A stretch of 64,000 nucleotides of DNA. Origin: Acidimicrobiia bacterium (GTDB lineage: Bacteria > Actinomycetota > Acidimicrobiia > Spongiisociales > ZC4RG35). The stretch's first letter is position 1. Each line of letters opens with the position of its first letter. Shown piece after piece: positions 38,966 to 52,374 of the stretch. The notes under the pieces were generated by a model, which made no database searches, was not told the DNA's origin, and worked only from the letters and a program-made list of their open reading frames with translations. Both the position numbers and the translations under genes were made by a program. Location: positions 64,879 to 128,878 of the forward strand of contig DATKCZ010000005.1 in NCBI GenBank assembly GCA_035512955.1, given 5' to 3'.

Positions 38966-40600
38966 TCAGTCGAGGGCGTCGTCGTCGAGCTTGGCGAACA
39001 CCGGGGCGATGTCACCGAGCTGGGTGCCTCCTCGGATCTCCGGAGCAGACCAGGCGAGCACTTCGGGGCCGACGCCCAGCATCTCGCCGATGACCACGCT
39101 GGCATGGGGTAGATAGGGGTAGAGGGCCACCCGCAGGGAGGCAATCGCCTGGACGGCCACCCAGAGGATGGTGGCCGCCCGCACCGGGTCTTCCTTGGAA
39201 GCCTTCCACGGCTCGGTGGCGTTCAGGTAGGCATTGACCTCGCCGGCGGCATCCATGGCGGTGCGTAATCCCGCCCGCAACTCCACCTTTTCTATGTGGT
39301 CTGCTACCGCGTCGAGGGTGCGCGCCCCGAGGTCGAGGATCCCCCGGTCGGCATCGATCAGCTCGCCCGGCTCGGGCACCTTGCCCCCGAAGTCGCGGGC
39401 GGTCATGGAGAGGACTCGGTTCACCAGGTTGCCCCAGGTGGCGACCAGCTCCTCGTTGACCCGGCGGATGATCTCGTCGTCGGAGAGGTCGGTGTCGTCT
39501 TGCTCGGGGAGTATCGAGGCGATGGCGTATCTGAGCGCGTCCGGCTCGAGCCGCTCGGTGTACCACCCGACCGATCGTCCGACCCCTTTCGACTTCGACG
39601 CCTTGGATCCCTTGAAGGTGATGAACTGGTTGGCGGGGATGTCAGTGGGCAGATTGAGGTCTCCCCGGCCCATGAGCATCGCCGGCCAGATCACGGCGTG
39701 GAAGGGGATGTTGTCCTTCCCGATGAAGTAGTACGACTCCGCCTCGGGGTCCTTCCACCATCGCTCCCATTGGTCGGGGTCGTCGGTGTATGACGCCCAC
39801 TCGATGGCTGCCGAGAGGTAGCCGATCACGGCGTCGAACCACACATAGATCTTCTTGCCCGGCCCCAGATCGTCGACGGGCACATCGACCCCCCAGTCGA
39901 TGTCACGGGTGATAGCGCGCCTCGGCACGTCCTCGATCATCCCGAGGGCCCAGTTCTTGACGTGTTTGCGCCAGGTTGTCTTACCTTCCAGCCATTCCCG
40001 CAGCCGATCGGCGAAGGCGGGCAGGTCGAGGAAGTAGTGCTCGGTTTCCCTGAGAACCGGGGTCGCACCGCTGAGCCGGGAGCGGGGCTTGATCAGGTCG
40101 CTCGGGTCGAGCGTTCGCCCGCAGTTGTCACACTGGTCTCCCCTGGCGTCCGGGTATCCACAGTGAGGGCACTCGCCTTCGACATAGCGATCGGGGAGGA
40201 AACGCTCCGCCTCGGGATCGTAGAACTGCTTCGAGGATCCCTTGACCAGGTAGCCGTTCTCGAGCAGTCGGATGAAGAAGTCCTGGGTCACCCGATGGTG
40301 GTTCTCGGTCATAGTGGTGGTGAAGAGGTCGAAACTGATTCCGAGCTGCTCCCAGTAGCCGACGTTCACCGGGTGATACGTGTCGACCACCTCGCGTGGC
40401 GTGATCCCCATCTCCTCGGCCTTCACCGTGATCGGAGTCCCGTTGGCATCCGAGCCCGAGACCATGAGAACGTCGTTGCCCACCAGACGGTGGTACCGGG
40501 CGAAGATGTCGGGTGGGAGGTAGGCGCCACCGAGCTGTCCCAAGTGCAGCGGGCCCGAGGCGTAGGGCCATGCGACGGCGACGAGGATGCGACGGGTCAT
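38966..40600 (-). CDS. metG: Methionine--tRNA ligase
   Basis: 544 aa. HIGH-type motif PLHLGQ, a Zn knuckle CPHCG...CDNCG, and a KMSKS-type motif KASKSKG. Confidence 0.95.
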   Translation of the reverse strand: MTRRILVAVAWPYASGPLHLGQLGGAYLPPDIFARYHRLVGNDVLMVSGSDANGTPITVKAEEMGITPREVVDTYHPVNVGYWEQLGISFDLFTTTMTENHHRVTQDFFIRLLENGYLVKGSSKQFYDPEAERFLPDRYVEGECPHCGYPDARGDQCDNCGRTLDPSDLIKPRSRLSGATPVLRETEHYFLDLPAFADRLREWLEGKTTWRKHVKNWALGMIEDVPRRAITRDIDWGVDVPVDDLGPGKKIYVWFDAVIGYLSAAIEWASYTDDPDQWERWWKDPEAESYYFIGKDNIPFHAVIWPAMLMGRGDLNLPTDIPANQFITFKGSKASKSKGVGRSVGWYTERLEPDALRYAIASILPEQDDTDLSDDEIIRRVNEELVATWGNLVNRVLSMTARDFGGKVPEPGELIDADRGILDLGARTLDAVADHIEKVELRAGLRTAMDAAGEVNAYLNATEPWKASKEDPVRAATILWVAVQAIASLRVALYPYLPHASVVIGEMLGVGPEVLAWSAPEIRGGTQLGDIAPVFAKLDDDALD

Positions 40601-40678
40601 TTGGTCAGGGAGCGTAACGGTGACCGGGCTCGAGGCCGATCCGGTTCGGCGTCACCACCGCCGCAATTGGCGGGAGTT

Positions 40679-41587
40679 TCACGTCGAGGTGGCGATGCCG
40701 GGTTGGTGGACGTGCTGGGTGGCACGTTCGGCGATGACGACGCCGGCGACGATCAGCACCGCACCCGCGGCGATGGCAGGGGTCACCGTCTCGCCGAGGA
40801 AGATCACAGCCAGGACCACCGCCAGGACCGGGATCGCATAACCGGTGAGGGCGAGTCTCGAGGCGGGGTTGACCCCGGCCGCGGTGAGGAAGGCGGCGAA
40901 GGCGAGTGTGGTGCCTACGGTGCCCACCCCGGCGATCAACAGCCAGCTCACACCGTCCACCGACGTCATGTCGACCGGGAACAACAGGGGGAGCAGCACC
41001 ACCACGACCACGGTGTTCACCGTGAACTGGGGCAGGATGAGACGCTCGCTGGGCATCTCCAGGGCAAAGCGCCTGCTCAGCGCACCGCCCACCCCGGCGA
41101 GGACCACACCGGCCATGATGAAGAGCACTCCGCGCCACAGATTGCCGACACCAGCGACGGTGGTGCCACCCACTCCGACCAGCAATGCCGACCCGGCGAG
41201 GGCGAGCAGGAGGCCGGGAAGGGCCCTCACCTGGAATCGCTCGCCGTCGACGAGGAAGTGGGCGGCGGCGATCGTCGAAAGGGGGACCAGAGCGATGAGG
41301 AGGCTCCCCAGGGTCACCGGCAGGTCCTCGATGGCCAGGGTCATGAACACCATCGGGAAGGCCATGGCGACGGTGCCCAGGACCAGACCCCGCCTCCAGG
41401 CGTCGGGGCTGGTGGTCCAGAAGCGTCTCGTGATGACCATGACGGCTGCCAGGGTGGCCAGGGCGATCACCATGCGAATCGGGATGAGGGTCCAGGTGCT
41501 CACCCCCCGCACCAGGATGGCCCGGGTGAGCACGGCCGAGGCCGCCCACCCGAGCGTGGCGCCTACGAGTGGGGTCCACGGACTCAT
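40679..41587 (-). CDS. EamA/DMT family transporter
   Basis: 302 aa. About 10 TM helices in two EamA-like halves. Confidence 0.8.
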   Translation of the reverse strand: MSPWTPLVGATLGWAASAVLTRAILVRGVSTWTLIPIRMVIALATLAAVMVITRRFWTTSPDAWRRGLVLGTVAMAFPMVFMTLAIEDLPVTLGSLLIALVPLSTIAAAHFLVDGERFQVRALPGLLLALAGSALLVGVGGTTVAGVGNLWRGVLFIMAGVVLAGVGGALSRRFALEMPSERLILPQFTVNTVVVVVLLPLLFPVDMTSVDGVSWLLIAGVGTVGTTLAFAAFLTAAGVNPASRLALTGYAIPVLAVVLAVIFLGETVTPAIAAGAVLIVAGVVIAERATQHVHQPGIATST

Positions 41588-41646
41588 CGGCGCAGGCTAA
41601 CCACGCCCTCAACGAACTATTCCCATGGGCCGATAACCTGAGTGTC

Positions 41647-42735
41647 ATGCGGATCCCCACTTTCAGCCTTCTGGCCGTTCTCGCCCTCCTGGCCGCCGCC
41701 TGCGGTGGCGGGACCACCGATACCACCTCACCGGACTCGACCACCTCCACGCTCGCCGAGCCGGCGCCGGAGGCTGTGGTGCTCTCCTACGGGCTCGAGC
41801 CGGGCACCTCCTTTTCCTATGAGGTGGACATGGACCAGGCGATAGACCTCATGACGAGTGGTGACCCGACCGCCATGGGAGAAGACGAGATTCCCGCACA
41901 GATGTCGTTGCAGATATCCGGGACCTCGACGCTCACCCACACCATTTCCGAGGGCCCCGAGCCGGGGACCTTCGAAGTGAACATCACCGGGGACTTCTCG
42001 AATCTCGAGTTCTCCGGGACGATCGACGGAGAGCCGGTGGAGGAGGCGGAGATCCCCGACATCGCCGAGTTGGACCCGATCGACGTGACGGTGATCGTCG
42101 ATGAGCAAGGCAATGTGATCCCTGAAGACGAAGCGCTCGGGGAGGACTTCCTCGGCGGGCTCGGAGGGCTGGGCGGTCTCGACATGCTTGGCCAGATCGG
42201 CGCCGCCGGGGGCGCCGGCCAGTTCGTCGGGCCACCGCTCAGCGACGAGGAGGTGACCGTCGGTGACACCTGGTCGGAGACCATCGAGACTCCCACACTG
42301 CCCGATGACGATCCGATCACGACCCTGATCGAGAGCGAGGTCGTGGGCACCGACTCCGTCGACGGGGCCGAGGTCTTCATCATCGAGACCACCACCACCA
42401 CGTCCCCGATCGAATTCGACCTGGCCGAATTGCTTCTCGGGCTCATGTCCGCCTTCATGCCCGAGGAAGCGAGCGAGGAGGAGAGGGCCGAGATCGACGC
42501 CATCGCCGACGAGATCCGATTCGCCTTCTCGGTCGATGAGACGGTGAGTGAGATGACGACCTGGTTCGACCACGACGCCGGCGTCTCCCGTCAGGCCGAG
42601 TTCTCCAATTCGACTCACATGGTGATGGACATGAATGTTCCCGATGAGGCGACGGGCGAGCTGGTCGGCCTGGAGATGGACATGGGCATCTCACAGGACA
42701 TCAGCTATCGGCTCACCGACTCGAGCGGCCCCTAG
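41647..42735 (+). CDS. Acidic lipoprotein, function unknown
   Basis: The start was chosen at MRIPTFSLLAVLALLAAACGG, which contains a lipobox. The protein is very rich in D/E. No domain recognised. Confidence 0.5.
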   Translation: MRIPTFSLLAVLALLAAACGGGTTDTTSPDSTTSTLAEPAPEAVVLSYGLEPGTSFSYEVDMDQAIDLMTSGDPTAMGEDEIPAQMSLQISGTSTLTHTISEGPEPGTFEVNITGDFSNLEFSGTIDGEPVEEAEIPDIAELDPIDVTVIVDEQGNVIPEDEALGEDFLGGLGGLGGLDMLGQIGAAGGAGQFVGPPLSDEEVTVGDTWSETIETPTLPDDDPITTLIESEVVGTDSVDGAEVFIIETTTTTSPIEFDLAELLLGLMSAFMPEEASEEERAEIDAIADEIRFAFSVDETVSEMTTWFDHDAGVSRQAEFSNSTHMVMDMNVPDEATGELVGLEMDMGISQDISYRLTDSSGP

Positions 42736-42738
42736 GGC

Positions 42739-43410
42739 TCACCCCCGGCGTCTCTGTCGCCAGCTCCGGTAGATCTTCCTGGTCAGGGAGACCGCACCGG
42801 TCCCGGAGGGCCTCATCTGGTCGAGCCGCGGGTCGACATCAGGTGCCGCCCGTACCTGTTCGAGCTCGTCGCGCAGCTCACCGAGGCGCTCTTTGAGAAA
42901 GTGGGCCTCGGTCTCGGCCTTGGCGGCGCGTTCTCTCGCCTCGGCCAGGGCTTGACCGGCCTCGTGGAGGTTTCCCAACTGGTTGAGCATCCGGTTCCAG
43001 GCGTCCAGTGGGACCAGCATCGAGCCCTCCGGGATGCGTGGCTCGTCTTCGGCGGTCAGCTCGACCTCCCCGGCCGGTTGGGGAAGTTCTCCCCGCGGCC
43101 CCTTGTCGGGGGTGAGCGAGGCCATCTCCCTGCCGATCTCGTCGGTCCACCGCTTGATGCCGCTCATGGAGACGATTCGCAGGTAGCCATCGGAGTTCTG
43201 CTCGAGGAAGCTCGGGATGTTCTTGTGCCGCGCCCACTTGCGGATCGTCGAGGTGGGGACCCCGGTGATCTCGCTCGCCTCTCTCAGGGTGAGCCAGTCC
43301 CCGGCATCGTGGGCCACTCTGGGGCGGGGCCTGGCGTCGCCCGACGAGTGGTCTCTCGAAGAGCGGAGGACCTCGGTCTCCCACAGAAAGGCTGGATCTG
43401 GGCTCGCCAC
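42739..43410 (-). CDS. HTH (MerR/excisionase-type) DNA-binding protein with C-terminal coiled coil
   Basis: 223 aa, GTG start. HTH region WLTLREASEITGVPTSTIRKWARHKNIP and a coiled-coil segment LAEARERAAKAETEAHFLKERLGELRDELEQV. Divergent from the first BMC-locus gene, 47 bp away. Confidence 0.5.
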   Translation of the reverse strand: MASPDPAFLWETEVLRSSRDHSSGDARPRPRVAHDAGDWLTLREASEITGVPTSTIRKWARHKNIPSFLEQNSDGYLRIVSMSGIKRWTDEIGREMASLTPDKGPRGELPQPAGEVELTAEDEPRIPEGSMLVPLDAWNRMLNQLGNLHEAGQALAEARERAAKAETEAHFLKERLGELRDELEQVRAAPDVDPRLDQMRPSGTGAVSLTRKIYRSWRQRRRG

Positions 43411-43457: not shown

Positions 43458-44081
43458 ATGCGTCCTTCGATGTCACCCCCGCAACCGCGAGACCTCCCGT
43501 CCGAGGAGGAAGTCCGCGCCCTGGTCGAGCGTATCCTGGACGATGTCGTCGACTCCGGTGGACATGACGGAGGCGAGACCGCCGGCTACGACCCCGCCGT
43601 GTCCGGTGAGGCGGAGCCGGGAAGCGAGGGGATCGCAATCGGCGCCGACCACGGCGGCTTCCCGCTCAAGGAGCGGATCGCCTTCAAGTTGAGGGAGGCA
43701 GGGTGGGAGGTCTTCGACTGTGGCACCGACTCACACGAGGCCGTCGACTACCCCGATTTCGCCCACGCCGTGGCCCGCAAAGTGGCCTCCGGAGAGTGTC
43801 GATGGGGGATCGTCATCGACGGTGCCGGGATCGGCTCGGCCATGGTTGCCAACAAGGTGGCCGGGGTCAGGGCCGCCTCGTGCTACGACCTGTCCTCGGC
43901 CCGCAACAGCCGGGAGCACAACCACGCCAACGTCTTGACCCTCGGCGCCGGTCTCATCGGCGAAGGGCTAGCGTGGCAGATCGTCGAAGAGTGGCTGTCC
44001 ACCGAGTGGGCAGGGGGCCGCCACGCCCTTCGCGTTGCCAAGATCGACGCGCTCGACCAGCAATACTCGAGGTCCGAATGA
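43458..44081 (+). CDS. rpiB: RpiB/LacAB-family sugar-phosphate isomerase with ~55-aa N-terminal extension (BMC-associated)
   Basis: The core begins at [16 protein letters not shown] and contains [16 protein letters not shown] and NVLTLG. The N-terminal extension holds the amphipathic helix [16 protein letters not shown], followed by a G/P/E-rich linker. Confidence 0.85.
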
Positions 44082-44091
44082 AGACGAGCAC

Positions 44092-44925
44092 ATGAACAGG
44101 GAGGCTCTCGTCGAGGCGATCACACGTGAGGTGCTCGCCTCCCTGTCAAGCCGGTTCGACATGGCAGAGACCGGGGAGACGGTGCGTGAGGTGGTGGCCA
44201 ACGGCGCCGACCGGGTCGCCTTCCATGGCGAGGCTGCCGATGTGCCCATCGACCTCGCCCAATACATCGATCACACCCTGCTCAATGCCGACGCCACCGC
44301 CGAGGACATCGATCGGCTCTGCTCCGAGGCGGACCAGTACGGGTTCGCCTCGGTGTGCATCAACCCCACTTGGGTGAAACGCGCCGCCAACGACTTGAGG
44401 GGCACCTCCGTCCCGGTCTGCACCGTGATCGGCTTCCCCCTCGGAGCCACCACCACCGAGGTCAAGGCGATGGAGGCTCGCAAGGCGTTGCGCGACGGTG
44501 CCCGTGAGATCGACATGGTGATCAATGTCGGGGCGCTCAAGTCGGGAGACCACGACGTGGTCTACAACGACATCGCCAGGGTGGTCGATGCCTCCCACGA
44601 GGTCGGTGCGGTCTGCAAGGTGATCCTGGAGACGGCACTGCTCACAGACGAGGAGAAGGTGATCGCCTCGGCCCTGGCCAAGCGGGCCAAGGCGGATTTC
44701 GTCAAGACATCGACAGGATTCGGCCCCGGAGGCGCCACCGTCTATGACGTGGCCCTGATGCGTGAGACGGTGGGCCCGGAGATGGGCGTCAAGGCATCGG
44801 GCGGGGTGCGGACGGCCCACGACGCCGAGGACATGATCGCAGCAGGCGCCACCAGGATCGGCGCCTCGGCCGGTGTTCAGATCGTCAGCGGAACCGACGG
44901 AGGAGACAGTGACGAAAGGTATTGA
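44092..44925 (+). CDS. deoC: Deoxyribose-phosphate aldolase with N-terminal extension (BMC-associated)
   Basis: The start was chosen at [18 protein letters not shown]. The DeoC core includes IDHTLL, a Schiff-base Lys in FVKTSTGF, and VKASGGVR. Confidence 0.9.
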
Positions 44926-45544
44926 GCTCAGGTCCTACGCCTTCCTGGACAGTCTGCAACCCCAATATGCAGCTTTCCTGGGAACGGTCGCACAGGGATT
45001 CCTCCCTCTGGCCGGTGACGCCTCGCTCTGGGTGGAGGTCGCCCCGGGGATCGAGATCAACCGGCTCTCCGACGTCGCTCTCAAGGCGACCACGGTCAAG
45101 CCCGGTCTGCAGATAATCGAGCGGTACTACGGGGTGCTCGAGGTGCACTCACCCGATCAGGCCGAGACGCGGGCGGCGGGAGAGGCCATCCTCGAGGCGA
45201 TCGAGCACACCGAGGACGAGCGCATGAAGCCGCGCATTCTCAGCTCCCAGATAATCCGCCGCATCGACGACCACCATGCCCAGCTCATCAACCGGACCAG
45301 GCACGGCCAGATGATCATCCCCGGACAGACCCTCTACGTGCTCGAGTGCGAACCGGCGGCGTATGCCTCGCTGGCGGCCAACGAGGCAGAGAAGGCCGCC
45401 GAGATCAATGTGCTCGAGGTGCGCAGCTTCGGCTCGATGGGTCGGATCTATCTCGGCGGCGAAGAGCGCGATATCGATGTCGGGTGGCAGGCGGCGGTGG
45501 CCGCGCTCGAGGGCTTGACCGGCCGGGATTCCGGTCAAACGTAG
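44909..45544 (+). CDS. Tandem BMC-domain shell protein (BMC-T)
   Basis: GTG start, preceded by the SD GGAGGAG. Two BMC-like repeats: [37 protein letters not shown] and [43 protein letters not shown]. Confidence 0.7.
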
Positions 45545-45584
45545 GTAACTGTTCCCATGGAGAACGAACGAAAGGAGGAGCTTC

Positions 45585-45887
45585 ATGGCTGAAGCTCTTG
45601 GAATGATCGAAGCCCGCAGCTTCCCGGCGATGGTCGAGGCTGCGGACGCCATGGTCAAGGCGGCCAAGGTGGAGCTGGTGAGCATGGAGAAGACGGGTGG
45701 CGGGTACGTGACCGCCGTGGTCCGCGGTGACGTGGCCGCGGTCAAGGCCGCAGTCGACGCCGGTGTCCGCGGCGCCGAGAAGGTCGGCGAGGTCACGGCG
45801 ACACATGTCATCGCACGTCCACATGTCAATGTGGATCTCGCCCTGCCCCTCGGCCGTCAGGAACAGGCTCAGGAAGACCTCGGTTAG
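45585..45887 (+). CDS. BMC-H hexameric shell protein (PduA/EutM/CcmK-like, PF00936)
   Basis: 100 aa, preceded by an [68 protein letters not shown] is a canonical BMC domain. Confidence 0.95.
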
Positions 45888-45901
45888 GTGCGCCCCCACC
45901 A

Positions 45902-46210
45902 ATGCAGTTAGGCAGGGTCTCAGGGACGCTCGTCGCCAGTCGCAAAGAAGCCCTGATGGAGGGGATGAAGTTCCTGGTGGTGAAACAGATCGACGAGGCC
46001 AATCAGGAGACCGGCTCGTACGTGGTGGCCGTCGACGCCGTTGGGGCGGGTGTGGGTGAGGTCGTCCTCTACGCGTCGGGCAGCTCGGCGCGCCAGACCG
46101 AGATGACCAGGGACCGTCCCTGTGATGCGGTCATCATGGCGATCGTGGACTCCTGGGACGTCGGCGGCGAGGTGAGGTACCACAAGGGCGAGGAGGAGCG
46201 CTCTGGATAG
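45902..46210 (+). CDS. BMC-P pentameric vertex protein (EutN/CcmL/PduN-like, PF03319), copy 1
   Basis: 102 aa. [29 protein letters not shown]...[22 protein letters not shown]. Confidence 0.9.
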
Positions 46211-46253
46211 GTCACGGCTGAGCGAGTCGGAGATCCGCGCCATCATCGATCGG

Positions 46254-47672
46254 GTGAAGGGGCGGGTGGCCGCCGCCGAGTTCGCGGCGCGCGCCGGTCC
46301 CACCCTGCGAGCCGGAGACGAGCTCGCGGTCTCCGAGATCGAGCTGGGAGACGGCATCCATCTCACTATCGAGGAGGCGGTCAAGGCCGCCCGCCGGGCC
46401 TTCATGGACTATCGGGAGATGGGCTTGGAGGCCCGCAAGACGATCGTCGGCAGCATGCGGGCCGCCATGCTGCGCGAGGGAGAGCGATTGGCGTACATGG
46501 CCGCCGAGGAGACCGGGATCGGCCGGGCCGAGGACAAGGTGGTGAAGAACCGTCTGGTCACGACGAAGACCCCAGGCCCTGAAGACCTCGAGCCCCATGT
46601 GGTCACCGGGGACTCCGGGATGATGGTCACCGAGTACGCCCCATACGGGGTCATCGCTTCGATCACCCCCACCACCAACCCGACTTCGACCATCATCAAC
46701 AACTCGATCTCGATCGTCTCGGCGGGCAACGCCGCGATCTTCAATGTCCATCCCAACGCCGCGATGGTCTCGGTGGAGAACATCAAGCTCCTCAACCGGG
46801 CGATCGTCTCCGCCGGGGGGCCACAGGACCTGATCACCGCCACACCCCAACCGACACTGGAGACGGCGCGGGAGGTGATGCACCATCCCGACGTGAGGGT
46901 CCTGCTGGTCACCGGGGGCCCGGGAGTGGTCAAGGAGGCGTTGAAGACCAGCAAGAAGGCGATCACCGCCGGGCCGGGCAACCCACCAGCGGTCGTCGAC
47001 CAAACCGCGGATGTCGAAGCGGCGGGCCGTGACATATTCCTCGGTGCTTCCTTCGACAACAACGTGATCTGCACCGACGAGAAGACCACGATCGTCGTCG
47101 ACACGGTGGCCGATCGGCTGGTGCAATCGATGATGTCCAACGGCTCCTACCGATTGAAGGAACACGAGCTGAAGCGTCTCGAGCGGGTGATCTTCCGGGA
47201 GATGGGGCCGCCCAACAAGCCGGGGATGATCAACCCGGAGTGGATCGGGAAGAGCGCCCAGAGGATCCTGTCCGAGATCGGGGTCACCGTCGACCACGAC
47301 GTGAGGCTGGTGGTGGCCGAGGTACCCCGTGAGCACAACCTGGTGTGGACCGAGCAGATGATGCCGGTCATGCCGGTGGTCAGGGTGCAGAACGTCGACG
47401 ACGCCATCGACCTGGCGGTCAAGTCGGAGCACGGGTTCCGTCACACGGCTTCGATCCACAGCACCAATGTCGACACCATCACCCGGATGGCCCGGGCGAT
47501 GAACTGCAGCATCTTCGTCGCCAACGGTCCCAACTACAGCGGTCTCGGCGAGGGCGGCGAGGGGTTCACCTCGTTCTCGATCGCCAGCCCCACGGGTGAG
47601 GGCATGACCCGCCCCCGCCACTTCTCCCGGGTGCGGCGGATCAGCGTGGTGGGGGCTCTTCGCATTGTCTGA
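46254..47672 (+). CDS. CoA-acylating aldehyde dehydrogenase (PduP/EutE-like)
   Basis: 472 aa from the GTG start. Catalytic Cys context FDNNVICTDEKT and cofactor block VTGGPGVV. The frame is open upstream to 46176 and encodes an amphipathic helix there, so the true start may be upstream and non-canonical. Confidence 0.9.
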   Translation: MKGRVAAAEFAARAGPTLRAGDELAVSEIELGDGIHLTIEEAVKAARRAFMDYREMGLEARKTIVGSMRAAMLREGERLAYMAAEETGIGRAEDKVVKNRLVTTKTPGPEDLEPHVVTGDSGMMVTEYAPYGVIASITPTTNPTSTIINNSISIVSAGNAAIFNVHPNAAMVSVENIKLLNRAIVSAGGPQDLITATPQPTLETAREVMHHPDVRVLLVTGGPGVVKEALKTSKKAITAGPGNPPAVVDQTADVEAAGRDIFLGASFDNNVICTDEKTTIVVDTVADRLVQSMMSNGSYRLKEHELKRLERVIFREMGPPNKPGMINPEWIGKSAQRILSEIGVTVDHDVRLVVAEVPREHNLVWTEQMMPVMPVVRVQNVDDAIDLAVKSEHGFRHTASIHSTNVDTITRMARAMNCSIFVANGPNYSGLGEGGEGFTSFSIASPTGEGMTRPRHFSRVRRISVVGALRIV

Positions 47673-48255
47673 CCCCGCCATCGCCCTACTCGAGTTCGAC
47701 TCGATCAGCGCCGGGATAGTGGCGGGTGATGCCATGGTCAAGACCTCCCCGATCGGCTCGATCTATGCGGGGACGGTTCATCCGGGCAACTACCTGGTGC
47801 TGGTGACGGGTGACACCGCCAGCGTGGAGATCGCTCTTGCTACCGGCATCGACATCGGAGGCAGCCGGCTGACCGACTCGGTTTTCCTCCCCGACATACA
47901 CCCGGACGTGTCAGCCGCCATCGTCGGTGGCGCCCGGGCGGCGACGTTGCGGGAGGAGGCACTCGGGGTCGTGGAGACCACCACGGTGGCTGCGGTGATC
48001 GACGCGGCCGATGCCGGGGTCAAAGCCGCCGACGTGGAGGTCTCCTCGGTGCGGCTGGCCGATGGTTTGGGGGGGAAGGGATATGTGCTCTTCTCGGGCG
48101 TGGTTGCCGAGGTGGAGGCTGCGGTGGAGGCGGCAGTGGAGCGGGTGGCTCCTCACCGGACGCTAGTGAGGTCAGACGTCATCGCCCAGCTCCACGACGA
48201 GATGGCTGACAACCTCGGCGCCGAGCTTCGCTTCATAAAGCGCGTGGAGAGCTGA
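47665..48255 (+). CDS. Tandem BMC-domain shell protein (PduT-like BMC-T)
   Basis: 196 aa. The TTG start overlaps the end of the AldDH gene. Two BMC domains: AIALLEFDSISAGIVAGDAMVKTSPI...HPGNYLVLVTGD and ALGVVETTTVAAVIDAADAGVKAADVEV...GGKGYVLFSG. The protein contains no cysteine. Confidence 0.85.
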   Translation: MSDPAIALLEFDSISAGIVAGDAMVKTSPIGSIYAGTVHPGNYLVLVTGDTASVEIALATGIDIGGSRLTDSVFLPDIHPDVSAAIVGGARAATLREEALGVVETTTVAAVIDAADAGVKAADVEVSSVRLADGLGGKGYVLFSGVVAEVEAAVEAAVERVAPHRTLVRSDVIAQLHDEMADNLGAELRFIKRVES

Positions 48256-48534
48256 ATGCAGCTGGCACGGGTCCTGGGGAGCGTGGTCGCCACCGAGAAG
48301 GCCGAGGGCCTCGAGGGGGTCCGCTTCTTGGTGATCCAGCCCCTGGACAAGAGACAGGAACCGGTGGGAGGGACCGTGGTGGCTGCCGACGCGGTGCAGA
48401 TGGCCGGACCGGGCGAGCTGGTCTATTTCGTCAGCTCGCGAGAGGCCGCCGAGGCCCTGCCGGTGCGCTTTGTGCCCGTTGACCACGCCGTCGTCGGGAT
48501 CGTCGACGAGGTGACGCTCGGAGTCGAGACGTGA
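48256..48534 (+). CDS. BMC-P vertex protein, copy 2
   Basis: 92 aa. MQLARVLGSVVATEKAEGLEGVRFLVIQPLD...AADAVQMAGPGELVYFVSSREA. Confidence 0.85.
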   Translation: MQLARVLGSVVATEKAEGLEGVRFLVIQPLDKRQEPVGGTVVAADAVQMAGPGELVYFVSSREAAEALPVRFVPVDHAVVGIVDEVTLGVET

Positions 48535-48818
48535 AGGTGGGCAATGTGGTCGGGACGGTGGTGTCGACGATCAACATCCCCCTTCTCGACGAGCATCGGC
48601 TCCTCCTGTGCGATGTGCAGGACGTCGCAGGTGAGCCGGATGGGTACACCATCTGCATCGACGTGGTCGACGCCGGGATGGGCGAGACCGTCCTGATCCT
48701 CGACGAGGGGAACTCGGCCCGTCAGATCCTCGGTCTCGAGACCGGTGCAATTCGCGCTGTCATAGTCGGCGTGGTCGACGAGCTCTACGTCGACGGCGAG
48801 TTGCGCGAAGTCATCTGA
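48531..48818 (+). CDS. BMC-P vertex protein, copy 3
   Basis: 95 aa. The GTG start overlaps the stop of copy 2 by 4 bp. VGNVVGTVVSTINIPLLDEHRLLLCDV...IDVVDAGMGETVLILDEGNSARQ. Confidence 0.8.
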   Translation: MKVGNVVGTVVSTINIPLLDEHRLLLCDVQDVAGEPDGYTICIDVVDAGMGETVLILDEGNSARQILGLETGAIRAVIVGVVDELYVDGELREVI

Positions 48819-49735
48819 GGGCTTGGCACCGGTGACGACGATCCGGGTCGAGCCGGGTCGGAGCTCTTCAGTGCGCCGAACCACACTCCGGTCATCACCA
48901 CGAGCGCGCCGGTGATGCCCCGGCCCGTCAAGGGCTCATCGAGCAGCCAGGCCTCGACCAGCATGGTGACCACGGGGAACAGAACAAAGGTGTACGAGGT
49001 CACCGCCACCGACCAGCGACGCACCACCAGCAGCATCAGCACGAACATCCCCACAGACCCGAGGAGCACCAGATACAGCACCGACAGCACCACCTCGGGC
49101 TGCCGGGGCACCGCCCACCGCTCACCGGCCAGCCCTGACAGCAAGAGCAAGAGCGGCGCCCCCAATGACATGCCCACCGCGTTGGTCATCACCGGGTGGT
49201 TGCCGGAGACACGCTTGCCGAAGATGACGCTCTGGCCGATGGTGAGGGAGGCGGCCAGGACGGCGAGCAGGCCACCGAGGGGCAGGGCCAGCCCATTGGG
49301 GCCGACCGTCATCCAGACGATCCCTCCCAATGCCAGCAGCGCACCAATGACGGTTCGCCTATTGAGACGTTCCAGACCCTGCGCCCATGCCAGGAGAGGG
49401 GCCACCAAGGGGACTATGGCGAGCAACACCGCGGTCATCCCGGCACTGACCCGAACCAGGGCCCAGTACATGAGGGCGTAGGAGAGGGTGACGGTGAACA
49501 GACCGTATAGACCCGTGAGCACCAGTTGTCGCCCCCTCGGCCGTTCGAGACCCAAGACCAGGGCGATCAGCACGAACACGATCGCAGCCAGCGAGAAGCG
49601 CAGCCCGGCACCCCAGAAGGGCGGGAGCTCGCCATTGCTGAACCTGACCGCAACGAAGTTACCGCCCCCGAGGAGGACGGCGCCGGCGAAGGCACCGAGG
49701 GTGAATGCTCCGGGTGGTCGCAGGGGACCGGTCAA
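48785..49735 (-). CDS. EamA/DMT family transporter
   Basis: 316 aa. About 10 TM helices. It is convergent with the third BMC-P gene and overlaps its 3' end by 34 bp. Confidence 0.8.
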   Translation of the reverse strand: MTGPLRPPGAFTLGAFAGAVLLGGGNFVAVRFSNGELPPFWGAGLRFSLAAIVFVLIALVLGLERPRGRQLVLTGLYGLFTVTLSYALMYWALVRVSAGMTAVLLAIVPLVAPLLAWAQGLERLNRRTVIGALLALGGIVWMTVGPNGLALPLGGLLAVLAASLTIGQSVIFGKRVSGNHPVMTNAVGMSLGAPLLLLLSGLAGERWAVPRQPEVVLSVLYLVLLGSVGMFVLMLLVVRRWSVAVTSYTFVLFPVVTMLVEAWLLDEPLTGRGITGALVVMTGVWFGALKSSDPARPGSSSPVPSPQMTSRNSPST

Positions 49736-49819
49736 AGGGCTCTCCTCTGTGGTTTCGTTCGACTATCGCCTTCGACACACCGTCACGCATCGGGCAAACG
49801 CCCCATTTGCCGACCCCGA

Positions 49820-51349
49820 TCACCCGACGAGTCGGTGCTCCATGGCATAGACCGATGCGCCCGCCCGGGTGGAGACCCCGATCTTGGAGTAGATGTTCTC
49901 GACATGACGGCCCACCGTCTTGGGCGATATGTAGAGCCGCTCGGCGATCCGGCGGTTGGTGTGCTCTCTCGCGATGAGTCGGAGCACCTCGACCTCGCGA
50001 TCGGTGAGCCCATCGGGATTGCGGGGGGCGGGTCGCTCCAGCTCACCTCCTGCCGCGGCGACCACCCAAGCCACCGCATCCGAGTCGAGACGGCCCGCGT
50101 CACGGTCGTCCCTCATCGCCTCGACTGCCCCATCGAGAGACACCGCGCCCCGATGTGGCCGGTCAGAGGTCAGCGCCACCAGGGTGTCGGCTGCGGCCAG
50201 GATGTTGTCTCCCACCGACAGGTGATCAGCGCCGACCTGACGGTGGTATCCCGAGCCGTCGAGTCGCTCGTGGTGTCTCGAGGCGAGCTCGCCCAGCGGC
50301 TGTAACGCCGGGCAGCGGGAAAGGACTCGATCCGTCAGATAGGGATGAAGCATCACCTTCTCCCACTCGTCCACCGACAGCGGGCCCGGCTTGTCCCAGA
50401 TCCCGTTCTCCACACCGACACGCCCCAGATCGTGGACGAGCCCCGCCCGGTGCAGGCGATTGGCCCCCTCCAGCCCCAGCCCCGCCTGGTGCGCTGCCGT
50501 CTTGGCCAGGTCGGCCACCCGACGGGAATGGCCCCGGGTCCAGGGTGACTTGAGATCGACGAAGTCGGCCAGCACGGTCAGGGCATGATCGAGATCATCC
50601 ACCTGGGATACCGGGTCCGGCTCGCTCTCCAAGAGCTCCTCCCAATCTGCCTCCCCGCTCCAGTGGTGGCGTATGCCGTCGAAGGCGTCCACCACCCTCG
50701 GGTCGTACGCCTTTCCCCGGCGTTGGTTGAGCAGAACCATCGGGTCCCGGTTCCCGTGCACCGCGAGATCGATGTCTCGGGCCACCGATGAGATCCTGAT
50801 CTCGAGGGGGATGGCCTCCCCCGCCGTGCCGTTGGGGAGCCCCTTGCCGTCCCAACGCTCATAGGCATGCTGGAGGGCGCCGATGACCGGCTCTCCCAGG
50901 CCTAGACGCGAGGCCAGCATCGCGGCCACCTCGCAATGAGCGCTCAGGGTGCGGGTGGCCCCGTCCCGGTCTGAGAGGGCTCCAAGGAGGAGCGCGGCCT
51001 TTCTCAGTGGCGGCTTCCCGGGCCCCACCGCTCTCACCGTCGCCTTGAGCGACTCGACGGGATCCCCGTTGAGCACGTGCGCCATCGCGAAATTGAACGA
51101 CAGCTCGTCCCCGCCCACGACCCGGGCCAACTCTGACACCTCCCCGGTGCAACCGAGGAAGCGGAGCAGTGACACCTGGTGGACCGAACGAACCTGCTCG
51201 GGCCCGAGGCCCATCTCTCCGGCCACCCGGACCGCGAGCAGACAGGTGCGCAGACCATGCCCCAGCGGGGTGCCCGTTGCCAGATCGGTGGCCAGGGAGA
51301 GCGACGCCAGGAGCTCGGCGAGCCGAAGCCGACCGGTGAACAGGGCCAT
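49820..51349 (-). CDS. Tandem HD/HD-GYP-domain protein with C-terminal LuxR-type HTH
   Basis: 509 aa. The first HD-like module is degenerate (HAYERWDGKGLPNG). The second is HD-GYP-like (HDLGRVG...HHERLDGSGYHR). C-terminal HTH: LTDREVEVLRLIAREHTNRRIAERLYISPKTVGRHVENIYSKIGV. Confidence 0.75.
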   Translation of the reverse strand: MALFTGRLRLAELLASLSLATDLATGTPLGHGLRTCLLAVRVAGEMGLGPEQVRSVHQVSLLRFLGCTGEVSELARVVGGDELSFNFAMAHVLNGDPVESLKATVRAVGPGKPPLRKAALLLGALSDRDGATRTLSAHCEVAAMLASRLGLGEPVIGALQHAYERWDGKGLPNGTAGEAIPLEIRISSVARDIDLAVHGNRDPMVLLNQRRGKAYDPRVVDAFDGIRHHWSGEADWEELLESEPDPVSQVDDLDHALTVLADFVDLKSPWTRGHSRRVADLAKTAAHQAGLGLEGANRLHRAGLVHDLGRVGVENGIWDKPGPLSVDEWEKVMLHPYLTDRVLSRCPALQPLGELASRHHERLDGSGYHRQVGADHLSVGDNILAAADTLVALTSDRPHRGAVSLDGAVEAMRDDRDAGRLDSDAVAWVVAAAGGELERPAPRNPDGLTDREVEVLRLIAREHTNRRIAERLYISPKTVGRHVENIYSKIGVSTRAGASVYAMEHRLVG

Positions 51350-51537
51350 GGCAGCGGGAAGCTAGTCAGACGACTGCCGGCCCGGCCTGTTGGCCCGCCA
51401 GAGGTGTGTCGGTCGTATCACTCTTCGTCAGCCGGTCTTCCCCAGGCGATTCTGAACGCTTTCACTCGAGATCTGGTGGTCGCCATGCTCGGCGAGGCGC
51501 GCGTTACGTAGGGTGGGCCTGTGAAACCGAGCGGCAG

Positions 51538-52374
51538 ATGCGATTTGGACTGAAGCTAAGTCAGAAGGCGACCATCGACGAACACCGGGCGGTCTGGCGG
51601 ATTGCGGATGACGAGGGTTTCGACCATTGCTGGAATATGGATCACTTCGCCGCGCTGGGCGAAGATCCCGCCGGAGACATCTTCGAGGCTTGGACCCTGC
51701 TCGCCGCGATGGCCGAGGGGACGACCCACACACGGATCGGGTGCATGGTCACCGGTAACACATACCGTCATCCCGCAGTGCTGGCCAAGATGGCCGTGAC
51801 ATTGGATCACATCTCGCACGGCCGCTTGGAGTTTGGGCTCGGAGCGGCGTGGGCGGAGAACGAGCACAGGATGCTGGGGCTCGAGTTCGGGACCGTCGGG
51901 GAACGGCTGGATCGTCTGGAGGACGCCTGTCAGATCATCACCTCTCTGTGGACCGCGCCCACCACCACGTTCGCTGGAGCGCATTACCAACTCGAGAAGG
52001 CGATAGCCGAGCCTAAGCCCGTGCAGCGACCGTATCCGCCGATTTGGATCGGCGGGAGCGGACCCAAGCGGACCCTGCGAATTGTGGCCCGGTACGCCGA
52101 CGTCTGGAACATGCCCGGGGGCACGCCGGCCGAGTTGGCGAGGTCATCTCGTGTCCTCGACCAACACTGTGCCGATGTCGGACGCGATCCGGCGGAGATT
52201 CGACGGACCGTCCAGGTCCGGCTTCCGGAGGAGCCAGCCGACGCCCTGCCGCTGGTAGAGGGATACGCCCAGGTCGGTGCCGACGACATCATCCTGATCG
52301 TGATGGGCGGCACTGCCGAGACGCAGGCCAAACAGGCCGCAACCCTGCTGCCTCACCTTCGAGACGTTGGCTGA
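51538..52374 (+). CDS. LLM-class (luciferase-like) F420-dependent oxidoreductase
   Basis: The start was chosen at MRFGLKLSQKATIDEH. Typical LLM blocks are FDHCWNMDHF, GRLEFGLGAGW-like GRLEFGLGAAW, and PPIWIGGSGPKRTLRIVARYAD. Confidence 0.8.
   Translation: MRFGLKLSQKATIDEHRAVWRIADDEGFDHCWNMDHFAALGEDPAGDIFEAWTLLAAMAEGTTHTRIGCMVTGNTYRHPAVLAKMAVTLDHISHGRLEFGLGAAWAENEHRMLGLEFGTVGERLDRLEDACQIITSLWTAPTTTFAGAHYQLEKAIAEPKPVQRPYPPIWIGGSGPKRTLRIVARYADVWNMPGGTPAELARSSRVLDQHCADVGRDPAEIRRTVQVRLPEEPADALPLVEGYAQVGADDIILIVMGGTAETQAKQAATLLPHLRDVG

Follow-up and report, generated by a model that had tools for sequence, protein, structure and literature searches.

Here, we describe an operon for a sugar-phosphate-utilising (SPU) bacterial microcompartment (BMC) in an Acidimicrobiia bacterium, located in a 64,000-nucleotide stretch of contig DATKCZ010000005.1 (assembly GCA_035512955.1) that we call the window and from whose first letter all positions are counted. 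We propose, with a probability of roughly 0.8, that the ribose-5-phosphate isomerase-type protein (RPI, encoded by an rpiB-like gene), the deoxyribose-phosphate aldolase (DERA, encoded by deoC) and the aldehyde dehydrogenase (AldDH) of this operon each carry an N-terminal helix of the encapsulation-peptide (EP) type, and that these helices enclose the enzymes in the shell. Underlying this proposal are the anatomy of the extensions, their conservation, the constraint on their codons, their association with shell genes and the motif that they share, all of which are observed. An original prediction, made from the letters of the window, had singled out N-terminal extensions of RpiB and DeoC as possible EPs, and all the peptides that it quoted are present in the two proteins where it placed them: the 16-residue stretch of RpiB is at aa 16–31, directly ahead of the 27 residues quoted as its linker, and the two stretches of DeoC are at aa 3–18 and 29–42. 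The EP interpretation is supported by our analysis and matches the published view of SPU compartments (PMC11585597; Dwyer, Sutter, Kerfeld 2024).

Anatomy of the RpiB extension

EPs are defined as terminal amphipathic helices of 15–20 aa that are attached by a poorly conserved linker and are absent from non-BMC homologues (Kinney 2012; PMC4594438; Aussignargues et al. 2015). The open reading frame of the rpiB-like gene (43458–44081) encodes 207 aa, or 203 aa from M5 at 43470, the second ATG, whose methionine is conserved among relatives, with the upstream ATG at 43458 as the alternative. The gene (43470–44081, +, from the conserved start) matches Pfam LacAB_rpiB (E=6e-53), which spans aa 59–196, and solved RpiBs in the PDB with E values down to 1e-45. 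The solved RpiBs, which are 149–179 aa long, align only to query aa 57–205, beginning at query aa 57–59 and at their own residue 3–23, and the extension therefore amounts to 54 residues from M5 or 58 from the first ATG, in agreement with the approximately 55 aa originally estimated.

Within this extension, the EP-type helix (43497–43553, +; aa 14–32 in 207-aa numbering) is followed by a hypervariable linker rich in Gly, Pro, Glu and Ser (43554–43628, +; aa 33–57). Column entropy, calculated here and for DeoC over 120 homologues each, is 0.57 in the helix and 0.41 in the core but rises to 3.09 in the linker, whose length also differs between homologues, always in frame. Among close relatives the linker is dominated by non-synonymous changes and in-frame indels. 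Windows over the helix reach hydrophobic moments (muH) of 0.56–0.64, the maximum for this protein, with an hxxhhxxhh pattern and an R20/E24 pair one turn apart. AlphaFold2 was run on shallow alignments of 18–19 close homologues, which yielded a usable model for RpiB and a poor one for DeoC. In the RpiB model a helix is predicted at residues 12–28 of the 203-aa form, with a predicted local distance difference test score (pLDDT) of ~83 for residues 11–20 and ~60 for residues 21–30, and is followed by a linker at pLDDT 35–39 and then by a confident core. The expected order of a helix and a disordered stretch is thus recovered for RpiB by structure prediction.

The same arrangement, a (D/E)(D/E)hxxhVxxhhxxhh motif followed by a variable linker, occurs on shell-adjacent RpiBs of Chloroflexi and Spirochaetota. 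The helix is present on shell-adjacent RpiBs from Actinomycetota as well as from Chloroflexi and Spirochaetota, whereas solved RpiBs start at the core. At the level of sequence, the RpiB extension has every feature by which EPs are recognised (PMC4594438).

Boundaries and first helix of the DeoC extension

The deoC gene (44092–44925, +) encodes a DERA of 277 aa that matches Pfam DeoC over aa 56–264 and solved DERAs in the PDB with E values down to 2e-81, the latter aligning from query aa 53–54. As normal DERAs already have 5–10 residues before the IDHT motif, the extension is about 50 aa long and reaches 58 aa only when counted up to IDHT; the extension of about 60 aa that had been predicted is thus real, though shorter. 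For both enzymes, solved structures align only to the cores, in keeping with the claim that non-BMC enzymes lack this additional N-terminal sequence.

The first helix of the DeoC extension (44098–44151, +; aa 3–20) is EP-like. Stand-alone SPU DERAs from other phyla have kept its motif, hxxhhExIT(R)EVL, and residues E8 and R12 are spaced like E7 and R11 of PduP, for which a salt bridge between these residues, together with bundling of EPs, has been described (PMC12339742; Trettel et al. 2025). Entropy in the extension ranges from 0.25 to 0.43, compared with 0.30 in the core. In close relatives synonymous changes in the extension outnumber non-synonymous ones, for instance by 11:3 and 15:3 in the related locus L004 (L numbers are our handles for loci). 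AlphaFold2 predicts a helix at residues 3–18, at a pLDDT of about 50 or below in a model with a mean pLDDT of 66.

Could the extensions be annotation artefacts, with the real starts lying downstream so that the helices are never made? No strong Shine-Dalgarno sequence precedes the ATG at 44092 or that at 43470, and a GTG codon at aa 48 of RpiB could offer a later start. However, in amino-acid sequence the helices are as well conserved as the cores, the same helices occur in other phyla behind different upstream DNA, and the RpiB linker changes in length but never leaves the frame. For DeoC, M1 is invariant across the 120 homologues, and the sole in-frame start upstream of it, a TTG at 44035, falls inside rpiB. 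Conservation, the excess of synonymous changes and the invariant Met1 of DeoC together exclude mis-called start codons, and the downstream starts that the original prediction had named as a way to overturn it were not borne out; we consider an artefact to be extremely improbable. We also discarded a reading of the extensions as secretion or membrane signals, as they are acidic and without a hydrophobic core.

A candidate third tag on AldDH

The acylating AldDH of the operon (46203–47672, +; called start GTG at 46254) matches Pfam Aldedh and the solved homologue 5jfl in the PDB (E=2e-128). Read from the called GTG, the protein is not extended by a terminal peptide when compared with 5jfl. The frame is open upstream of this codon to 46176, and an EP-like helix with the sequence SESEIRAIIDRVKGRV (46221–46268, +) is encoded mostly ahead of it. 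Neither the window nor its closest relatives have an ATG, GTG or TTG upstream of 46254 in the AldDH frame; they have in common a conserved AGGAGG-N6-CTG arrangement with the CTG at 46203. Differences among close relatives over the helix region are mainly at third codon positions, and more distant relatives (L005–L008, L053) have an ATG a few codons ahead of the same EI(R/Q)xIIERV helix. The true start of AldDH is, judging by the sequence, probably the CTG at 46203, which precedes the called GTG by 51 nt and would give a protein of ~489 aa.

Compared across the whole window in six frames, the RpiB EP and the upstream peptide of AldDH are reciprocal best matches, with a score of 40 against 33 for the next best match and a background of -15.6 +/- 8.3 (99,639 windows). 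These helix matches and the open upstream frame indicate that all three lumen proteins carry related helices. The helices of RPI and AldDH sit on variable linkers, the classical layout of EPs, and the DERA helix is joined through a conserved segment of ~30 residues.

Association with shell genes and points against encapsulation

Scanning a single genome for each species, we obtained 80 DERA loci, whose flanks were searched with the shell proteins of the window. A BMC-H or BMC-P gene was found nearby at 33/60 loci with an extension-bearing DERA and at 0/20 loci with an extension-less DERA (Fisher p=3e-6). With flanks of at least 8 kb on each side, shell genes were present at 17/27 extension-bearing and 0/16 extension-less loci (p=2e-5).

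Several observations weigh against encapsulation by EP-type helices as we propose it. Ten of the 27 extension-bearing loci with full 8–10 kb flanks, mostly from Acidobacteriota, have no shell gene nearby; the DERA extension is thus not strictly confined to shell-adjacent genes, and the association, although strong, is not absolute. The DeoC model is poor, with the extension at pLDDT <50, and it does not settle the secondary structure of residues 24–52. Helix 1 of DeoC is only moderately amphipathic, as its muH of 0.42 lies between the median (0.28) and the 95th percentile (0.54) of the protein. Residues 23–52 of DeoC, at an entropy of 0.25 against 0.30 in the core, are not the poorly conserved linker that the definition of an EP asks for. 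The amphipathic helix with a flexible linker that was predicted for both enzymes consequently stands in full for RpiB, by muH, entropy and AlphaFold2; for DeoC an EP-like helix is probable and the flexible linker does not hold. For AldDH, the EP is made only if a non-canonical CTG serves as the start, and the helix–helix contacts, the helix–shell contacts and encapsulation itself are carried over from other EPs and SPU systems.

The shell-less Acidobacteriota loci (L010, L021, L030, L043, L049, L054 and others, within 8–10 kb) often have an adjacent RpiB of the Asp type discussed below. The RpiBs at these loci bear a different N-terminal domain of ~60 aa (ITExDV...G..L.V..GA.VTPLA.D...), without an EP helix, for which a Pfam scan returned no family. 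The loci could be satellite cargo loci or reflect a shell-independent use of the extension; EP-like DERAs at satellite positions have been reported in genomes with shells elsewhere (PMC8217296; Sutter et al.).

Alternatively, the extensions may serve only enzyme–enzyme assembly or regulation, through an RPI–DERA complex or DERA oligomerisation, and not shell targeting. An RPI–DERA complex and natural RPI–DERA fusions have been described (PMC11585597), many of our protein matches to DeoC have the size of such fusions, the conserved second segment of the DeoC extension looks structural, and extension-bearing DERA/RPI pairs exist without shell genes nearby. Yet a DERA from which the extension is missing still binds RPI (PMC11585597), the RpiB helix is attached through a disordered, hypervariable linker, as is typical of a tethered tag and not of an interface, and its motif recurs on AldDH. 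The strong association with shell genes also speaks for targeting, as does a 2025 preprint on a Hodarchaeales SPU-type system, in which recruitment of a Flav+DERA fusion to the shells is EP-dependent and is abolished by deletion of the EP (PMC12747264). We regard a role in assembly alone as quite unlikely, and encapsulation through EP-type helices remains our preferred explanation.

The conserved second segment of the DeoC extension

The second segment of the DeoC extension (44170–44247, +; aa 27–52) sets this protein apart from a classical EP cargo. A phmmer search covering 1.84 billion representative proteins returned, among its top matches, many RPI–DERA fusions of 430–530 aa and DERAs of ~300 aa, with the match starting at query aa 27–32. 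The segment is kept across phyla, including within the fusion proteins; a GAxRh motif is present in 56/103 extension-bearing representatives, and hhxxGAxRh is common to distant DERAs and fusions. Since they are conserved like the catalytic core and retained across phyla and in fusions, the ~30 residues after helix 1 are a structured part of the SPU-type DERA and not a flexible linker. This agrees with the published description of the SPU DERA extension as a helix followed by two strands predicted at low confidence (PMC11585597).

In most SPU-type DERAs outside this Acidimicrobiia lineage, a Cys-rich insert lies between helix 1 and the GAxR segment. It takes forms such as CxxCGxC and C-x2-C-x3-C-x3-C and may bind a metal or an iron–sulfur (Fe-S) cluster; its bearers include the proteins P0305, P0316, P0245 and P0249 and, just upstream of the core, those of loci L010, L031, L049 and L054. 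The DeoC of the window has no Cys at the position of the insert. The available excerpts of the 2024 SPU paper contain no mention of such an insert (PMC11585597), and Pfam scans of the DeoC extension and of a Cys-containing DERA extension returned no family.

The second segment also resembles the C-terminal beta8/phosphate-loop motif of DeoC itself (44830–44875, +). A first hhalign test of the segment against the C-terminal motif gave a probability of 96.6% and was set aside, because both sets had been chosen by the same regular expression; the comparison was therefore repeated with an unselected profile and with shuffled and reversed controls. This profile covered the 32 residues that precede the core in each of the 101 extension-bearing representatives, without motif selection; in 27/29 extension-less DERAs it matched best to the beta8/phosphate-loop motif (hhxAGAxRIGxS) near the C-terminus. 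The mean score was 9.6 bits, compared with a maximum of 5.5 for shuffled sequences (n=580) and ~0 for reversed ones. In the parts of the 2024 SPU paper accessible to us, this resemblance is not mentioned (PMC11585597). On the strength of these comparisons, segment 2 may derive from or mimic the last beta–alpha unit of DERA, possibly through a partial internal duplication.

We tentatively raise the idea, to which we give a low probability, that the DERA extension is a two-part module of an EP-like helix and a partial copy or mimic of the C-terminal alpha7–beta8 phosphate-binding element. If so, the second part could dock in trans on a neighbouring DERA or RPI and link the cargo into a network, and the version in the window would be a natural minimal, Cys-free form.

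These features of DeoC also invite an explanation in which its extension is mainly a structural or regulatory addition to the TIM barrel, a pseudo-beta8, and DERA piggy-backs into the shell on the EP-bearing RPI. Such an addition would account for a second segment that is as conserved as the core and similar to the beta8/phosphate-loop motif, and for the insertion of a CxxC...C motif, possibly for metal binding or redox, in this region of the majority of distant homologues; the modest amphipathicity of helix 1 and the existence of the DERA–RPI complex (PMC11585597) fit as well. Against it, the motif of helix 1 is EP-like and conserved across phyla, with E8/R12 placed as E7/R11 in PduP. Moreover, DERA is extended in SPU5 loci even though these have no RPI, and its extension leads to aggregation like that seen with EPs (PMC11585597). 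We judge this explanation improbable and favour an EP-type function for the first helix of DERA.

Operon organisation and genomic neighbourhood

In a Pfam scan, positions 43458–48818 (+) hold nine tightly packed genes, all in one direction, in the order RPI, DERA, BMC-T(dp), BMC-H, BMC-P, AldDH, BMC-T, BMC-P, BMC-P. Downstream of deoC, whose ATG at 44092 is 10 nt past the rpiB stop, lies a CsoS1D-like tandem-BMC shell protein, BMC-T(dp) (44909–45544, +), with a weak Pfam BMC match; its orthologue at L001/L002 contains PF27545 CsoS1D_N. The likely start of BMC-T(dp) is the GTG at 44909, which is preceded by GGAGGAG and overlaps the final 17 nt of deoC; the overlap and the GGAGGAG suggest translational coupling. 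The further shell genes encode BMC-H (45585–45887, +; Pfam BMC E=1e-28), a first pentamer, BMC-P 1 (45902–46210, +; Pfam EutN_CcmL E=3e-29), BMC-T with a tandem BMC domain (47665–48255, +; Pfam BMC in two stretches, E=4e-33), and BMC-P 2 and BMC-P 3 (48256–48534 and 48531–48818, +; Pfam EutN_CcmL E=1e-24 and 6e-18). The gene order of the window is identical in related contigs and is also found in loci that encode RPI–DERA fusions. Close homologues are annotated as belonging to metagenome-assembled genomes (MAGs) of Acidimicrobiia or Actinomycetota.

The operon is flanked by genes for a methionyl-tRNA synthetase (38966–40600, −), two EamA-family transporters (40679–41587, − and 48785–49735, −) and a LuxR-type HD-domain regulator (49820–51349, −), and a divergent HTH/MerR-like regulator lies upstream of it (42739–43410, −). 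No PduS, phosphotransacylase (PTAC) or alcohol dehydrogenase gene was seen adjoining the operon (38966–43410 and 48785–52374), and a scan of the operon for promoters and terminators returned nothing informative.

As published, an SPU microcompartment comprises DERA, AldDH and shell genes with a BMC-P triplet (PMC4207490, PMC8217296, PMC11585597), and SPU loci have been catalogued by Sutter et al. 2021 (PMC8217296) and Axen et al. 2014 (PMC4207490). In the window, DERA (PF01791) and an acylating AldDH (PF00171) are clustered with BMC-H and BMC-P, next to the BMC-P triplet, BMC-T and BMC-T(dp), and a PF02502 RpiB-type protein in which Asp takes the place of the catalytic Cys.

The locus does not belong to the SPU6 subtype. 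The Anaerolineae SPU6 operon has the order RPI-DERA-P-AldDH-H-Tdp-P-P (PMC11585597), compared with RPI-DERA-Tdp-H-P-AldDH-Ts-P-P in the window, which has a BMC-T(s) in addition. Anaerolineae loci in our survey (L011, L013, L014, L018, L025–L027, L047) encode an AldDH that is ~30% identical to that of the window and has a C-terminal EP (...PxEIExVVxxVVNEIL), whereas the AldDH of the window stops at the normal C-terminus of the fold (...GALRIV), aligned to the end of 5jfl, and has its EP at the N-terminus. The Anaerolineae architecture matches the published SPU6 and the window locus therefore represents a different subtype, SPU6 being ruled out by both the type of AldDH and the position of its EP.

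RpiB active site and proposed working of the compartment

What is the function of RPI in this compartment? In the alignment to 3he8 and 3ph3, the sequence GIVICGTG of the solved enzymes corresponds to GIVIDGAG in the window, so that Asp121 (codon GAC, 43818–43820, +) stands in for the catalytic Cys (Cys66 in E. coli). Asp is found at this position in 45/45 RpiBs from an SPU context in which it could be read. The replacement of Cys by Asp in SPU RPIs and the inactivity of RPI have been reported before, and activity is known for some RpiBs whose base is a carboxylate, such as that of M. tuberculosis (both in PMC11585597, the latter as cited there). The presence of Asp121 in place of the catalytic Cys suggests a non-isomerase, possibly scaffolding role, and by analogy the RPI of the window is probably a DERA-binding packaging partner rather than an isomerase. 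It would in this respect resemble dead EP-bearing scaffolds such as CcmM of beta-carboxysomes and the inactive AldDH copies of some GRM loci (PMC11585597), having kept its fold and EP and lost the Cys, although for RPI, unlike for those proteins, we infer the scaffold role.

In the mechanism that we propose, the helices would bundle by way of hydrophobic faces and Glu/Arg pairs at i/i+4, whereby the cargo would condense into a core (PMC4594438, PMC12339742), and would attach to the shell on its inner face as well, leaving the enzymes enclosed. DERA would cleave deoxyribose 5-phosphate into acetaldehyde and glyceraldehyde 3-phosphate, and AldDH would convert the trapped acetaldehyde into acetyl-CoA. 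The Asp-substituted RPI would act mainly as the DERA-binding packaging partner (PMC11585597).

Discussion

EP-bearing RPI and DERA of SPU compartments have been known since 2024 (PMC11585597), and the window for this reason adds no new principle. According to that work, an N-terminal extension that comprises an amphipathic helix and further structure is common to all SPU DERAs, and SPU RPIs carry a "typical EP" and a linker. The window agrees with this description in having the same enzyme pair beside shell genes, together with AldDH and a BMC-P triplet, an RPI with a helix, an unstructured linker and Asp for Cys, and a DERA with a helix and a further structured segment. Automated annotation often misses SPU extensions (PMC11585597), and this holds in the window for the AldDH EP. 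In contrast, the RPI linker of the window measures ~25 aa and not ~75 aa, and its DERA extension is ~50 aa long, compared with ~70 aa in the characterised Chloroflexi DERA, and lacks the Cys-rich insert of most lineages (PMC11585597).

The original prediction also held that targeting of such enzymes to a BMC lumen had not been demonstrated biochemically. This is now true only in part: the full-length Chloroflexi SPU DERA is insoluble and deletion of the extension makes the enzyme soluble (PMC11585597), and the Hodarchaeales Flav+DERA fusion is recruited to shells (PMC12747264). For RPI, the statement still holds.

Compared with the EPs of PduP, PduD, EutC and EutE, the helices of the window are likewise terminal, ~16–18 aa long and of the hxxhhxxhh pattern (PMC4594438, PMC12339742). 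They share with classical EPs an i/i+4 pair of an acidic and a basic residue (R20/E24 in RpiB and E8/R12 in DeoC, corresponding to E7/R11 in PduP), a variable hydrophilic linker on RPI and AldDH, and, at least for RPI, absence from non-BMC homologues. Unlike classical EPs, they occur on a DERA aldolase and an RpiB-fold protein, and the variable linker is missing from DERA.

For annotation, the probable CTG start of AldDH is of value as it was missed by open reading frame callers. For engineering, the short Cys-free DERA extension and the 17-residue tag of RPI and AldDH may be of use in targeting. A further lead is the possible origin of the conserved part of the DERA extension in the beta8 strand of the same enzyme. 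In conclusion, a compact SPU microcompartment is encoded in this Acidimicrobiia MAG, probably with a tag on each of its three lumen proteins, and such a fully tagged lumen set supports the proposed role of SPU compartments in the recycling of deoxyribose from DNA debris.

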